Sequence record: PX436236.1
Origin: a phage
Direction: 5' to 3' (one strand)
DNA: 64,000 bases
Shown here: piece after piece, positions 1-9,277 of the stretch
Layout of the letters: each line of letters starts with the position of its first letter
Numbering within the stretch: the first letter of the stretch is position 1
Notes under the pieces: model-generated
What the model saw: only the letters and a program-made list of their open reading frames with translations
Database searches by the model: none
What the model was told of the DNA's origin: nothing
Position numbers and translations under genes: made by a program

Positions 1-18
1 CTTGCTGTAAACAACTTT

Positions 19-26
19 TATAAATA
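19..26 (+). promoter_or_regulatory. T4-type late promoter TATAAATA
   Basis: Exact TATAAATA about 29 nt upstream of the gene 24 ATG, followed by RBS AAGGAAAG. Confidence 0.8.
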
Positions 27-54
27 AACATATACCCTCAATAAGGAAAGCGCA

Positions 55-1338
55 ATGGCAAAGATTAACGAATTACTGCGCGAGTCAACAACTACTTCCA
101 GCAACTCATTGGGTCGCCCTAATCTTGTTGCTTTGACCCGTGCTACAACCAAATTGATTTACCGTGATATTATCGCCGAACAACGTACTAGCCAGCCTAT
201 TGCTGCACTGTATGGTGTCAAATATCTTACCCCTGATAATGAATTTAGTTTCCAGACAGGTGCCTCTTATGGTGGTGAAGTTGGTTCTAAAGACCGTGAA
301 ACTATCCCAGAACTCACAGATAAGGCCCAGGCGATTGCTCAGGGTGAATATTTCAAGTACCAGAATGTGGTTTATAAGGCTCTTAAAGCAAGCCCACTCG
401 CGTCCACTAGCGCCACAGAATTGGCTGATGCTCTTCAAGAAGGTTTAGTGTCATTAACATGTCGTCTGGTTCCTGATGCTGCCCATACCACTAAATTTGA
501 AGCGAGTGATGTAGAAATCTCTGATGCTGTATTCCAGGTTAATAAATGGAATGCTCCGGTTAAGACCCGTAAATTGAAGACGGCTTTGACTGTAGAATTA
601 GCGCAGGATATGGAATCAAATGGCTTTGACGCGCCGGCGTTCTTAGAAGACCTCTTGGCTACAGTAATGGCAGATGAAATTAATAAAGACGTTCTGCAAT
701 CTCTAATAACCGTATCCAAACGTTATAAAGTTACTGGTGTATCTGATAACGGCATCATCGATTTGTCTTATGACAGTGCTCCTGAATCTGCACGTAAACT
801 TTATGAACTCGTTTGTGAGATGAATTCTGAAATCCAGAAAACTACTTCTTATTCTGGCACGTTTGTTGTGGCTTCAAGTCGTGTGGCTGCAATGCTTGCA
901 GGTTCTGGCTGGTTAAAACATAAACCCGAAGATAATAATTGGCTTCCGGAAACTGCATACGGATATTTGTTGAATGGTCTGCCTCTGTTTTGTGACGTTA
1001 ACAGTCCATTAGATTATGTTACCGTTGGTGTTAAAGAGAATTACGGCGGTAATGAAGTTGTCGGTTCTATTTTCTACGCTCCCTATACCGAAGGCTTAGA
1101 TTTAGATGACCAAGAACACGTCGGTGCTTATAAGGTTATTGTTGACCCGGATTCATTACAACCTTCTATTTCTCTGATGGTTCGTTATGCACTATCAGCT
1201 AACCCGTACACCGTGGCTAAAGACGATAAAGAAGCTCGTGTTATCGATGCAACCAATATGGATTTAATGGCTGGACAGAGCAATATGTCTTATCTGGTTG
1301 GCGTTAAACTTCCGGCAATTATTTACGAGGCTGATTAA
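55..1338 (+). CDS. 24: Capsid vertex protein gp24
   Basis: 427 aa; near-identical over long stretches to remembered T4 gp24 (MAKINELLRESTTT..., FRIDKW/SRKLKT/TVELAQD block, C-terminal YALSANPYTVAKD). Confidence 0.9.
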   Translation: MAKINELLRESTTTSSNSLGRPNLVALTRATTKLIYRDIIAEQRTSQPIAALYGVKYLTPDNEFSFQTGASYGGEVGSKDRETIPELTDKAQAIAQGEYFKYQNVVYKALKASPLASTSATELADALQEGLVSLTCRLVPDAAHTTKFEASDVEISDAVFQVNKWNAPVKTRKLKTALTVELAQDMESNGFDAPAFLEDLLATVMADEINKDVLQSLITVSKRYKVTGVSDNGIIDLSYDSAPESARKLYELVCEMNSEIQKTTSYSGTFVVASSRVAAMLAGSGWLKHKPEDNNWLPETAYGYLLNGLPLFCDVNSPLDYVTVGVKENYGGNEVVGSIFYAPYTEGLDLDDQEHVGAYKVIVDPDSLQPSISLMVRYALSANPYTVAKDDKEARVIDATNMDLMAGQSNMSYLVGVKLPAIIYEAD

Positions 1339-2618
1339 TGTCTAAGATTGTAGACCTAATTAAAGAATCCACATTGACGGCTGCCAACTCGGTTGGCCGT
1401 CCTGCTCTTCTTTCATACACCCAAGCAACTAATAAACGAATCTTTAAAGCCCTAGTTGCTGAACAAAAAACAAATCAACCGGTTGCTGCTCTGTATGGGG
1501 TACGTGTACTGAATCCTGACGACAAAATGACTTATCTTGGTGGAGCAACATTTGCGGGCCAGATTGGTATGACGGAACGTGAAAATATTCCAGAATTTAC
1601 TGATTCATCTACAGCTTATGCGGTCGGTGATATGTTCCAGTTTGAAAGCGTAGTGTTTAAAGTTCTAGAAGCATCTCCTTTCGCCGGAACCACAGAAACC
1701 AACCTCAGCGAAGTTATTTCTGAAGCAGTGGCAGCCGGCCATATCCGTATGGTGTCGGATGCTGCTATTACTTCTAAATTTGAACAAGGCCATCCTGAAA
1801 TTGCTGAAACCGGATTCCGTATCGACAAATGGCAATCTGAAGTTAAATCACGTAAACTGAAAACTTCATTGACAGTCGAATTAGCCCAAGACCTAGAATC
1901 TAACGGGTTTAATGCTCCTAATTTTGTTGAAAATCTGCTAGGCATTCAAATGGCAGAAGAAATTAATAAGGATGTATTACAGTCATTAATTACCGTGAGC
2001 TCTCGTTTTAAAGTCCAGGGTGTTTCTGAAAAGGGTGTATTAGACCTTACCAACCCTCGCTACGATAATGCCCAGGACCGTGCTCGCACATTATATTATT
2101 ATATGTGTGAGATGAACTCTGCCGTCCAACGACAGACTTCTTTTGCCGGGACTTATGCAGTAGCTAGTTCTCGTTGTGCTGCTATTCTCGCCGCCTCTGG
2201 TTGGGTTGAGAAAAAGGAAGACCAGGACGAATTGGCTTATGGTATATTAAAGAATGGCCTACCACTTTATGCTGATATGAATAGTCCATGTGATTATGTT
2301 ATTGTTGGTGTAAATGCCCAGATGGGTGAAGGACAGACGGTCGCATCTTTATATTATGCGCCTTATACGGAAGGTTTGAATGTGGTTGACGAAGAAGGTG
2401 ATACTTCAGTTGGTGAATTTAAGGTTATTGTTGACCCGGAAAGCTTACAACCTACAGTAGCATTGCTTGCTCGTTATGCATTGTCTGCAAACCCTTATAC
2501 CGTCGCTAAGGACGATAAAGAAGCCCGCATTATTGATGGTTCTGATATGGACAAAATGGCTAATCAAAGTCAATTGAGTTCTTATCTCGGCGTAAAATTA
2601 CCGCCTTTAGAAAAATAA
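1338..2618 (+). CDS. gp24 paralog (second vertex-protein-like gene)
   Basis: 426 aa, roughly 55 percent identical to the upstream gp24 by eye, same conserved blocks; start overlaps upstream stop (TAATG). Confidence 0.8.
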   Translation: MSKIVDLIKESTLTAANSVGRPALLSYTQATNKRIFKALVAEQKTNQPVAALYGVRVLNPDDKMTYLGGATFAGQIGMTERENIPEFTDSSTAYAVGDMFQFESVVFKVLEASPFAGTTETNLSEVISEAVAAGHIRMVSDAAITSKFEQGHPEIAETGFRIDKWQSEVKSRKLKTSLTVELAQDLESNGFNAPNFVENLLGIQMAEEINKDVLQSLITVSSRFKVQGVSEKGVLDLTNPRYDNAQDRARTLYYYMCEMNSAVQRQTSFAGTYAVASSRCAAILAASGWVEKKEDQDELAYGILKNGLPLYADMNSPCDYVIVGVNAQMGEGQTVASLYYAPYTEGLNVVDEEGDTSVGEFKVIVDPESLQPTVALLARYALSANPYTVAKDDKEARIIDGSDMDKMANQSQLSSYLGVKLPPLEK

Positions 2619-2621
2619 AAG

Positions 2622-2637
2622 GGACCGTAAGGTCCCT
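2622..2637. terminator. Bidirectional intrinsic terminator hairpin
   Basis: GGGACC-GTAA-GGTCCC stem-loop with T-runs on both sides, between convergent gp24 paralog (+) and rnlB (-). Confidence 0.65.
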
Positions 2638-2644
2638 TTATCGT

Positions 2645-3652
2645 TTATTTGGATACTAGTTCAATCCATACATGTCTTAATGTTTCTTTTACGCACTCAA
2701 TGAGCTGCTTTTTAACTTCAACGGGATTTTCCGCATCAGTTAATTCCAATTCTTCACGGGCGGCTTCTTCAAGGATATCCTGGACTGTCAAGCCCATCAC
2801 CTTTCCGAAATCCTTCGGCGATACTTCGCCAATCTTACTGATGACATTGTTAATGCGGTTAACAGTCACATAATCGGTGAATTGCCACATCAAATCCATA
2901 TCGTCTTGGGACAATACCACTGCAACTTTAATAGGCTTATCAGACTTTTTCTTCTCGCTGAATTTAGAGTTCTTACATTTAATCGCCACACGATTTCCGT
3001 TTGGAAGCCAGGTAGGAACATCAGGTTTCAATACAAAGCCTTCAGCCGTGAATACCTTACCTTCTACCTTAGGAATAAAATCGGTTGAGTTTGCAATAGT
3101 TAAGCCTGCGTTATCCACTGCAAAATTATAATCAGGAACAACTGAATCAAAATCATTAGGAAGTTTAATAAGGTCTTCAAAGCTACCGGTGGCCAGACAT
3201 GGAGCTACCTTAAACTTATGGATAATACAGAAGGCTTCCATCAATGTATCGGTTAGAACAGATTCTGAGCCATCTTCTTTAGTAACTCGGATATCGAACA
3301 CATAAAAGTCTTTATCACCATAGTCCACATTCTTCTGGATACCTGGCCCAGCGAATTCGCCGTAAATCTGATATGACTGGTAATTAATCGATTCGATTAG
3401 ATGTTGAACAGATTTAATAGAATCAGCATAGTTCTTAAGTACAATTTCATAGCCATAGAAATCTTCAGCAGGGAGGATAGGGCCAGTGCGCTTGGCGCAT
3501 GTGACTGCGTCACGTTCTATGATTAAACTAAAGTTGGTTCCATGAATCTTCTCACGTGCTACCCATTCACCACCAGTCAAACCGTTAGTACGGAGTTTTT
3601 CGATAAACTTACTGTTGTAGTGGTTTTCGAGACTGCTATATTTCTTGAACAT
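2645..3652 (-). CDS. rnlB: RNA ligase 2
   Basis: 335 aa; [16 protein letters not shown]... with KIHGTN nucleotidyltransferase motif; T4 Rnl2 size and synteny. Confidence 0.9.
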
Positions 3653-3738
3653 AAATCACCATAATAAATATAATTAAATAGAAGAGCTAGTAGTCTTCTG
3701 TCACCAAGCCAAATGGTTTAACGGAAGGACCTAGACCC

Positions 3739-3765
3739 ATTATATCACACCTAAATTTAAAGCAT
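3739..3765 (-). promoter_or_regulatory. Candidate MotA-dependent middle promoter for rnlB
   Basis: Minus strand reads TGCTTTA (MotA-box-like), 13 nt spacer, then TATAAT; sits about 90 nt upstream of the rnlB start. Confidence 0.4.
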
Positions 3766-3766
3766 A

Positions 3767-3976
3767 TTACTTTGAACTAGAACGCGCTTTGCGCCGAACC
3801 TTGTTGTTCAATCTTTTACGATAAACAACCTTTTCTTTCGCTTTAAATTTGGCCTTGGCTTGTTCTACATCAACCCATGCTTTGGCCATGTCCTTAGCGG
3901 TCCCGCCCATTTTTTTAGCAATTTCTATAAAATTCAACCCAGATTCGTGTAAAAAATGTACTTTAACCTTATCCAT
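3767..3976 (-). CDS. Small HTH-like basic protein (hypothetical)
   Basis: 69 aa from internal ATG (track ORF extends to 4015 without RBS); helix-turn-helix-like N-terminus and Lys/Arg-rich tail. Confidence 0.45.
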   Translation of the reverse strand: MDKVKVHFLHESGLNFIEIAKKMGGTAKDMAKAWVDVEQAKAKFKAKEKVVYRKRLNNKVRRKARSSSK

Positions 3977-4059
3977 AACAATTCTCTCGTTGAGTTGGTA
4001 AACCCATCTTAACATAGAATTTTTAACTTGTAAACAGGAATTTTGTACTTTAATGCAAA

Positions 4060-4077
4060 ATGGGCCTTGCGGCCCAT
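4060..4077 (-). terminator. Intrinsic terminator after hoc
   Basis: mRNA-sense hairpin AUGGGCC-GCAA-GGCCCAU (GNRA loop) followed by UUUGCAUU, 2 nt after the hoc stop. Confidence 0.6.
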
Positions 4078-4079
4078 TA

Positions 4080-4928
4080 TTAATAAATGTAATCGTATAT
4101 AATACCAGCTTCTAAAGCGGTGCGATGAATAATTCGACCATTACGAGATTCTTGTACATCAACCTCTGAATAGTCGGTAATCATTTTTTGAAGTGTATAT
4201 CGGTGCAAATAATACGGGCTATCCGGGTCATCTGTTTTCCAGTCTTTGCCTTCAAGAGTCATTTTCTGGATTTCATCCATAACCCACCAACCAACCCAAA
4301 TATATGCTGAATTACGAACAGGGAGTGGATGAACGTAAGGTAATTCGCCATCCGGAACCGGTGCGACTTTAGCCGTGACTGTTACATTACCGGTTTTTGT
4401 GACAGTCGCCGGGTTATAATCAGTCGCCGAAACCACAACAGAAACTTCAATAACCTGTGAACCTTCAGTGCTTGTATCGATTGCTAGAGTATCCGTGGTG
4501 CCAACTACAGGAGAACCGTCTTTCTTCCAAGAATAGGCAAAAGTAGCACCAGCAGGAGCGCCGACCACATTCGCTTTAAAAGAAGCTGGAGTGCCTTCCG
4601 GAACATTAATCGAAGCTGGGGTTAATGTCACAGAAACACCGGAAATGGTTTTATTCTGGATAGTTAAAGTTGTTTCGGCTTCAGCTGTTTCTGGTTCGCC
4701 GTCCGCCGGTGTAGTTGTTGCAACAACTTTAATAGTCTTGCTGCCTGCCGGGCCAACAGCAACATAATCCATTGCAGCAGTCACAGAAGATTGAGGAACG
4801 CCATCAACAGTCCAGACAAATGATTCAGTACCTTCAGCTGCAGCACCGGAACCGGTCGCAGTGAAATTGGTTGTTGCTCCAATAACGGCCGTAGCCGCCA
4901 AAGGAGCCATATCTACGGTATAAGCCAT
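4080..4928 (-). CDS. hoc: Hoc outer capsid protein (Ig-like domains)
   Basis: 282 aa; Thr/Val-rich Ig-like repeats plus C-terminal capsid-binding-like region; T4 position between rnlB and inh. Confidence 0.7.
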   Translation of the reverse strand: MAYTVDMAPLAATAVIGATTNFTATGSGAAAEGTESFVWTVDGVPQSSVTAAMDYVAVGPAGSKTIKVVATTTPADGEPETAEAETTLTIQNKTISGVSVTLTPASINVPEGTPASFKANVVGAPAGATFAYSWKKDGSPVVGTTDTLAIDTSTEGSQVIEVSVVVSATDYNPATVTKTGNVTVTAKVAPVPDGELPYVHPLPVRNSAYIWVGWWVMDEIQKMTLEGKDWKTDDPDSPYYLHRYTLQKMITDYSEVDVQESRNGRIIHRTALEAGIIYDYIY

Positions 4929-5628: not shown

Positions 5629-5636
5629 TATAAATA
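5629..5636 (+). promoter_or_regulatory. Late promoter TATAAATA for uvsW
   Basis: Exact TATAAATA 29 nt upstream of the uvsW ATG in the inh/uvsW divergent intergenic region. Confidence 0.7.
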
Positions 5637-5642
5637 TAACTA

Positions 5643-5650
5643 TATTTATA
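5643..5650 (-). promoter_or_regulatory. Late promoter TATAAATA for inh-hoc
   Basis: Minus-strand TATAAATA about 34 nt upstream of the inh start; divergent partner of the uvsW late promoter. Confidence 0.65.
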
Positions 5651-9265: not shown

Positions 9266-9273
9266 TATTTATA
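9266..9273 (-). promoter_or_regulatory. Late promoter TATAAATA for genes 26-25
   Basis: Minus-strand TATAAATA about 19 nt upstream of the gp26 start; part of palindrome TATTTATAAATA. Confidence 0.7.
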
Positions 9274-9277
9274 AATA
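9270..9277 (+). promoter_or_regulatory. Late promoter TATAAATA for genes 51-27-28-29-48-54
   Basis: Plus-strand TATAAATA about 21 nt upstream of the gp51 ATG; overlaps the divergent minus-strand copy. Confidence 0.7.

Follow-up and report, generated by a model that had tools for sequence, protein, structure and literature searches.

The 64,000-nucleotide stretch of phage DNA analysed here (sequence record PX436236.1; hereafter the window) carries, close to its first nucleotide, two adjacent genes for capsid vertex proteins of the gp24 family. They are called 24a and 24b, as in the GenBank record of phage JS10. The first-pass annotation of this DNA had described two consecutive open reading frames (ORFs) of 427 and 426 amino acids, roughly 55% identical to each other by eye, joined through a TAATG overlap and ending at a bidirectional terminator, and had set them against the single gene 24 of T4. 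The layout is exactly as described. BLASTP alignment of the two products gives 237 identities over 428 positions (55%), with 77% positives, E = 3e-178 and three small indels, and the T4 locus does indeed hold one gene 24. The features of the locus are as follows.

55..1338, + strand: gene 24a, capsid vertex protein of 427 amino acids, ortholog-type of T4 gp24
1338..2618, + strand: gene 24b, second gp24-family vertex protein of 426 amino acids, from a distinct conserved paralog clade
1336..1340, + strand: TAATG stop/start overlap (24a TAA at 1336-1338, 24b ATG at 1338-1340)
19..26, + strand: T4-type late-promoter motif TATAAATA upstream of 24a, a putative promoter
44..48, + strand: Shine-Dalgarno-like AAGGA, read from the sequence, 6 nt before the 24a ATG
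1327..1330, + strand: GAGG Shine-Dalgarno for 24b, within the final 24a codons, 7 nt before the ATG
2618..2639, both strands: hairpin AAAGGGACC-GTAA-GGTCCCTTT, 9 bp and G+C-rich, between the convergent 24b and rnlB
2645..3652, - strand: rnlB (RNA ligase gene), convergent with 24b

The motif TATAAATA is the T4 late promoter consensus. In a motif scan the copy at 19-26 was the sole + strand match within 1-2618. A separate promoter for 24b was rejected, as no TATAAATA lies within 24a, and sigma-70-like hits were no commoner than chance would give (9, with 10.3 expected). At the other end of the pair, the hairpin was scored as terminator-like on both strands in a terminator scan. Its minimum free energy is -17.7 kcal/mol (z = -3.05), and none of 200 shuffled sequences was equally stable. 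The single late promoter would give one bicistronic 24a-24b mRNA that ends at this hairpin.

The junction between the two genes is tight in 19/19 loci compared, in the form TAATG, TAAATG, TAATATG, TGATATG or ATGA. A GAGG within the final 24a codons is present in 16 of these 19 loci (Dhakavirus, Gelderlandvirus and loci L014-L016), and a purine-rich Shine-Dalgarno-like element occupies the same junction in L017-L019 (GTGAG) and in L020 (GAGTGA). With the TAATG overlap and the internal GAGG, translation of 24b is predicted to be coupled to that of 24a and to yield 24b at about the level of 24a or a little below it. In 11 of 12 genomes 24b is slightly less well adapted to the codon usage of gp23 than 24a, which is compatible with expression of 24b equal to or somewhat below that of 24a, as expected of a coupled downstream gene.

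Family, fold and processing site of the two proteins

Both products match Pfam family PF07068, with E values of 3e-98 (24a) and 1e-96 (24b) and scores of 330 and 325 bits (cut-off 24.4). Both also match PHROG 138 (E = 2e-131 and 2e-123, respectively). Matches to T4 gp24 in the PDB run over the full length (8e-198 for 24a and 1e-151 for 24b, to 1YUE), whereas gp23 is matched at ~1e-11 and is ~25% identical to each copy. By these comparisons both ORFs are gp24-type vertex proteins and not gp23, so that the membership of the gp24/gp23 family first proposed for them holds, with gp24 far the closer of the two. The likeness to T4 had been overstated, however: 24a, described as nearly identical to T4 gp24, is 70% identical to it (297/424), and near-identity is confined to roughly the first 40 residues, the probable source of the earlier impression. 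The 24b protein is 56% identical to T4 gp24 over its full length, with no domain lost.

An AlphaFold2 (AF2) model of 24b built on a 62-sequence alignment reached a predicted local distance difference test (pLDDT) score of 74.3 and a predicted template modelling (pTM) score of 0.70; a shallower alignment of 22 close homologs gave a model of only pLDDT 41. The best PDB match of the deeper model is T4 gp24* in the mature capsid (5vf3_a), with template modelling (TM) scores of 0.84/0.86, compared with 0.56-0.61 for gp23*. Superposition on gp24* gives 24b a predicted HK97 fold with an inserted I domain. Confidence in the model is low in two stretches, residues 1-32 and 348-360, and the same two stretches are disordered in T4 gp24* (PMC9546572).

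The median ratio of nonsynonymous to synonymous substitution (dN/dS), calculated by the Nei-Gojobori method over many genome pairs, is 0.07 for 24a and 0.06 for 24b (range 0.04-0.14). Judged by these ratios, the two genes are under equally strong purifying selection. No frameshift or stop was found in 24b in ~30 loci across at least five lineages. Decay of 24b to a pseudogene was therefore rejected, the gene being intact and conserved with a median dN/dS of 0.06.

Both proteins begin with a predicted propeptide.

55..84, + strand: predicted 24a propeptide MAKINELLRE, identical to the T4 gp24 propeptide in the alignment, with putative cleavage
1338..1367, + strand: predicted 24b propeptide MSKIVDLIKE, ending in (L/I)-x-E and followed by Ser-Thr

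In T4, the gp21 prohead protease removes the ten residues of gp24 inside the assembled prohead (PMC9958956; PMC9546572), and the mature gp24* chain (5vf3_a) begins at residue 11. With an arrow marking the predicted cut, the motif aligns as ELLRE↓ST in 24a and T4 gp24 and as DLIKE↓ST in 24b. The N-terminus of 24b reads M-x-K-I-x-x-L-I-x-E↓ST in 17 of the 19 sequences compared. In L017-L019 the L-I-x-E↓ST lies one residue earlier, in L020 the sequence is LIYE↓SN, and in L033 and L035 L-(I/L)-x-E↓S is kept and is followed by N and V. Residues E10 and S11 of 24b are invariant, and L-(I/L)-x-E followed by Ser occurs in every 24b N-terminus read. Because the protease site is retained, it can be argued that 24b still enters proheads, where it would lose its first ten residues to the gp21 protease after Glu10.

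Distribution, phylogeny and origin of the pair

The window belongs to a Dhakavirus: its positions 1-3700 share 99.9% identity with Escherichia phage PSD2002 (Dhakavirus wg01), 99.3-99.7% with Bp7, WG01 and others, and 92% with JS10. The JS10 record labels the genes 24a and 24b, and the JS98 RefSeq record labels both "24"; the JS98 genome paper is said to mention the duplication. The two-vertex-gene pair is thus a known, annotated property of Dhakavirus. A duplication private to this genome, as the first-pass annotation implied, is not what was found: the pair is shared by five or more lineages, public records carry annotations of it, and it is long established and not peculiar to the genome of the window.

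With 24b as the query, a search of 5.8 billion proteins returned a graded series of matches. Those at 66-90% identity (P0001-P0021) are 24b-type proteins, those at 62% (P0022-P0024) are Jiaodavirus-type single gp24s by their placement in the tree, and ordinary gp24s are 52-60% identical to 24b. At the DNA level, at least 80% of 24b was covered in ~131 of 50,697 phage records. Every 24b-type gene with readable context lies directly downstream of a 24a-type gene, after gp23, and synteny with T4, JS10, JS98 and PSD2002 places the pair of the window after gene 23 within the cluster of late head genes. Pairs were found in the following groups.

Dhakavirus: L001, L005-L011, L022, L036 and L037
Gelderlandvirus: L003, L012 and L013
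Marfavirus: L017-L019 and MY02 (L040)
Kanagawavirus: L038 and L039 (Q7622 and Kosakonia 305), probably also L014-L016
FBB1-like Erwinia phages: L020 and L041-L044
Metagenome contigs: L033 and L035, with 24a within the T4/CC31 or PM2 groups

Only a single gene is present in Tequatrovirus (T4), a Jiaodavirus-like phage, Tegunavirus and Acinetobacter phages. No 24b without 24a was seen among ~30 loci, and the idea that 24b replaces 24a was rejected since there is no 24b-only locus. Kanagawavirus seems to be polymorphic, with 24a and 24b in Q7622 and Kosakonia 305 and, by the protein and DNA searches, apparently one gp24 in PEi20.

Neighbour-joining trees were calculated for 166 gp24 sequences with 200 bootstraps, repeated with gamma-corrected distances, and rooted on more distant gp24s from a 50%-identity representative library. 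In this phylogeny, a check that the first-pass annotation had proposed, the 24b genes form one clade (bootstrap 99-100%) across at least five genera. All 24a-type genes group with the single gp24 of T4, CC31, PM2, PEi20 and relatives in a clade from which 24b is excluded (86-97%). Both clades fall within a "close" group of gp24s, apart from the distant gp24s (90-100%). As 24b lies outside the clade of 24a and T4 gp24, 24a is nearer to the T4 gene than it is to the adjacent 24b.

These trees bear directly on whether 24b arose recently, within one lineage, by tandem duplication of 24a and is now in rapid divergence or decay. The tandem position, the same length and the 55% identity would fit such an origin, and in-paralogs of this kind should be each other's closest relatives. 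Instead, 24a shares 70% of its residues with T4 gp24 and 55% with 24b, and the two copies occupy separate, well-supported clades. Branching within the 24a and 24b clades is also broadly parallel, with the FBB1-like phages basal and Dhakavirus beside Gelderlandvirus, and the identities of 24a and 24b to the copies in the window drop roughly in step from genome to genome (97/97, 87/83, 73/79 and 65/67%). Together with the low dN/dS, the phylogeny refutes recent duplication, which we regard as exceedingly improbable. The tandem duplication first described at this locus therefore stands as an intact, diverged and presumably coupled paralog, but not as a genome-specific event that left a T4-like original and a derived copy.

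From the topology of the tree it follows that the 24a/24b split predates the radiation that includes T4, and T4-type phages either lost 24b or descend from a lineage in which it was always absent. Within the T4/CC31 and PM2 groups of gp24, some members do carry 24b (L033 and L035). Moreover, one-copy and two-copy lineages are interleaved in the gp23 tree of loci L001-L040, which conflicts with the gp24a tree. Gelderlandvirus, for example, stands beside a Jiaodavirus-like phage and L033 in the gp23 tree and beside Dhakavirus in the gp24a tree. The conflict between the two trees argues that the head module is mosaic, and the presence of 24b in the T4/CC31 and PM2 groups, together with the interleaving of gp23, calls for repeated loss, exchange of head-module genes, or both. 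On the sequences compared, 24b would have originated either by an ancient in-place duplication followed by losses or by the ancient acquisition of a divergent gp24.

The single gp24 of Jiaodavirus and Tegunavirus, which is ~63% identical to both copies, was considered as an a/b chimera formed by unequal crossing-over. This was rejected: of the 17 diagnostic sites, 11 agree with 24a and 3 with 24b, and there is no change-over from one type to the other between the N- and the C-terminus. Within Dhakavirus, synonymous divergence between the window and JS98-type loci (L006/L007, the IME281 and JS98 loci) is 0.49-0.66 in 24a and 1.18-1.23 in 24b. These values suggest a recombination breakpoint close to where 24a meets 24b, and the existence of two allele types of 24b within the genus.

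The surroundings of the pair also vary. Compared with positions 3652-4080 of the window, JS10 (L001, 7658-10301) has an extra 369-nt ORF beside rnlB, and between its 24.3 and hoc genes it carries a 'tail fiber-like protein' gene and a further hoc gene, neither of which the window has. By this comparison the region beside the vertex genes is an apparent indel hotspot within Dhakavirus. In three FBB1-like loci (L041 4845-6382, L042 4826-6341 and L044 2634-4140) two extra same-strand genes lie between 24b and the rnlB region; their products, of ~335-346 and 165 amino acids, have no Pfam match, and neither the window nor L043 has these genes. Further copies of TATAAATA occur elsewhere in the window as opposite-strand pairs, one divergent between inh and uvsW (5629-5636 on the + strand, 5643-5650 on the - strand) and a second, overlapping pair at 9266-9277; these may be back-to-back late promoters. 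No tRNA genes were found by ARAGORN in the 64-kb window (1-64000).

Proposed role of 24b

We propose that 24b is probably a functional, co-expressed accessory vertex (penton) subunit that acts beside an indispensable 24a, and that it is an old paralog of gene 24 retained by some of the enterobacterial T4-like phages. After processing, 24b would sit at the five-fold vertices, like gp24. The indispensable part of the vertex job is assigned to 24a because 24b is never found alone, and 24b would be accessory to it. Formation of pentons of its own by 24b would be more likely than free mixing with 24a, which would give two kinds of corner in each capsid. Two vertex proteins could, as the first-pass annotation had suggested, make the composition of the vertices heterogeneous or conditional.

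This last step is drawn from the positions at which 24b has changed. At 17 positions of the alignment, conservation reaches at least 90% within the 24a clade and within the 24b clade but with different residues in the two, and at 11 of the 17 it is 24b that holds the odd state relative to other close gp24s. T4 residues 25-68, a segment with 22 of the 154 conserved columns, contain eight of the 17 (hypergeometric p = 5e-4). The least similar 20-residue blocks between 24a and 24b are 61-80, 281-300 and 21-40. In T4 gp24*, residues 26-29 make a parallel beta interaction with an I-domain linker of the neighbouring subunit of their pentamer, residues 11-20 extend onto a neighbouring gp23 hexamer, and linker 1 spans approximately residues 60-81 (PMC9546572). 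Mapped in this way, the 24b-specific changes cluster in the N-arm and I-domain linker 1, the elements that clasp neighbouring subunits, and it is this clustering that points to 24b homopentamers. A more specific arrangement, in which 24a and 24b would form different kinds of penton on different subsets of the eleven non-portal corners (the single apical corner and the ten shoulder corners, to take one example) or a mixture of controlled ratio, is possible but rather unlikely.

The same substitutions could be read as a sign that 24b has left the vertex altogether and has become an assembly factor, a component of the prohead only, or a decoy, absent from mature heads. Several of its changes are at positions invariant in the close gp24s (L34R, Y57V, T68G, E335Q and L415Y), and it differs from 24a by the three small indels. 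Attachment of gp24 to the vertices of T4 is, moreover, thought to trigger the gp21 protease (PMC9958956), so that a paralog could regulate maturation. However, 24b is conserved in the manner of a structural protein, with its dN/dS of 0.06 and its full-length identity of 56% to T4 gp24; its predicted structure superposes best on gp24* as found in the mature capsid; and its propeptide motif is retained. We consider a role away from the mature vertex improbable.

Alternatively, 24b could be an interchangeable, condition-dependent vertex protein that is kept for certain environments or hosts, for instance for capsid stability in the gut or for lower visibility to bacterial defences that sense the vertex. 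T4 without vertex gp24 is less stable at low pH (PMC10580926), and therefore the composition of the vertex affects fitness outside the cell. An A380V substitution in the vertex protein of T6 gives escape from type IV Thoeris (PMC13243611), which places vertex proteins under immune pressure. The full gp24 fold predicted for 24b and its protease motif would also suit an interchangeable subunit. Against this, interchangeability leads one to expect 24b-only lineages, which are not seen among the ~30 loci, and the predicted co-transcription and coupling, with no sign of separate regulation, leave no visible switch between the two copies. Wild-type vertex protein restored Thoeris immunity (PMC13243611), so that a second copy would not mask the first, and both 24a and 24b have alanine at the position corresponding to A380. 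An exchangeable 24b is therefore judged unlikely. If the numbering of T6 and T4 coincides, the equivalents of T4 A380 are A379 in 24a and A381 in 24b.

Several observations weigh against an accessory penton protein that forms corners of its own. The 55 gp24* subunits at the 11 vertices of T4 show no significant conformational differences (PMC9546572), and as they are alike, the structure of a prolate T4-type head offers no evident reason for having two vertex proteins. The case for homopentamers is built on the positions of substitutions and not on a model of the interface. In addition, the 24b states N32, R56, F267 and D164 also occur in distant gp24s, so that part of the 24b signal may represent retained ancestral states and not a functional shift. 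The gp24 trees are distance trees only (neighbour-joining), and support for the sister group of 24b is low, whether this is Jiaodavirus/Tegunavirus (22-41%), the 24a/T4 clade (7-11%) or a basal position (1-6%). Finally, the literature searched gave no proteomics, genetics, cryo-electron microscopy or discussion of the second copy; the proteomic papers it turned up concern one-copy phages.

T4, with its one vertex protein, serves as the reference for the construction of large prolate capsids. A considerable number of its relatives have kept a second vertex paralog under long and strong selection, apparently without experimental study; among them are phages in therapeutic use or put forward for it, the JS98/JS10 group and the S16-like Salmonella phages for example. 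Should both proteins be present in the head, the accepted inventory of T4-type capsid proteins would be incomplete for the two-copy genera, and the 24a/24b pair would offer a natural system in which to follow the specialisation of capsid proteins for position. If there are indeed two kinds of penton, these phages would have three specialised shell proteins (gp23, 24a and 24b) compared with the two of T4. The role of 24b is a question that lends itself to experiment and is of moderate interest for capsid biology.

Comparison with known systems

The closest systems are the Dhakavirus phages JS98, JS10, IME08, Bp7, WG01, QL01 and PSD2002, which have the same locus with two 'gp24 head vertex protein' genes and the same gene order as the window (gp23, a small reverse ORF, 24a, 24b and rnlB). 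JS98-type members differ from the window, whose 24b is of the WG01/JS10 type, in that their 24b protein is ~91% identical to that of the window and their 24a 95-96%. Gelderlandvirus (UTK0003 and CGG4-1), Marfavirus (Marfa and MY02), Kanagawavirus and the FBB1-like phages have orthologous pairs in the same order and with junctions as tight; their hosts and genera differ, and their 24b proteins are 67-85% identical to that of the window. In some two-copy relatives all three genes are annotated 'major head protein'.

T4 gp24 (1YUE, 5VF3 and 7VS5) shares its family, length and fold with 24a and 24b, as well as the L-x-E motif that ends its ten-residue propeptide, a segment predicted in both copies. 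Gene 24 of T4 lies after gene 23 and before rnlB, with a late promoter motif upstream, as in the window. T4 has one gene, however, of which 24a is the nearer counterpart (70% against 56% for 24b), and 24b differs from T4 gp24 at otherwise invariant positions of the N-arm and the I-domain linker.

The older duplication that led from gp23 to gp24 likewise produced a capsid duplicate within the head-gene cluster, with each copy under purifying selection, and gp24 has been described as a derivative of gp23 optimised for vertices (PMC9958956; PMC10580926). There the two proteins share ~20-25% identity and have demonstrated, distinct positions in the shell, whereas 24a and 24b are 55% identical and are known here from their sequences.

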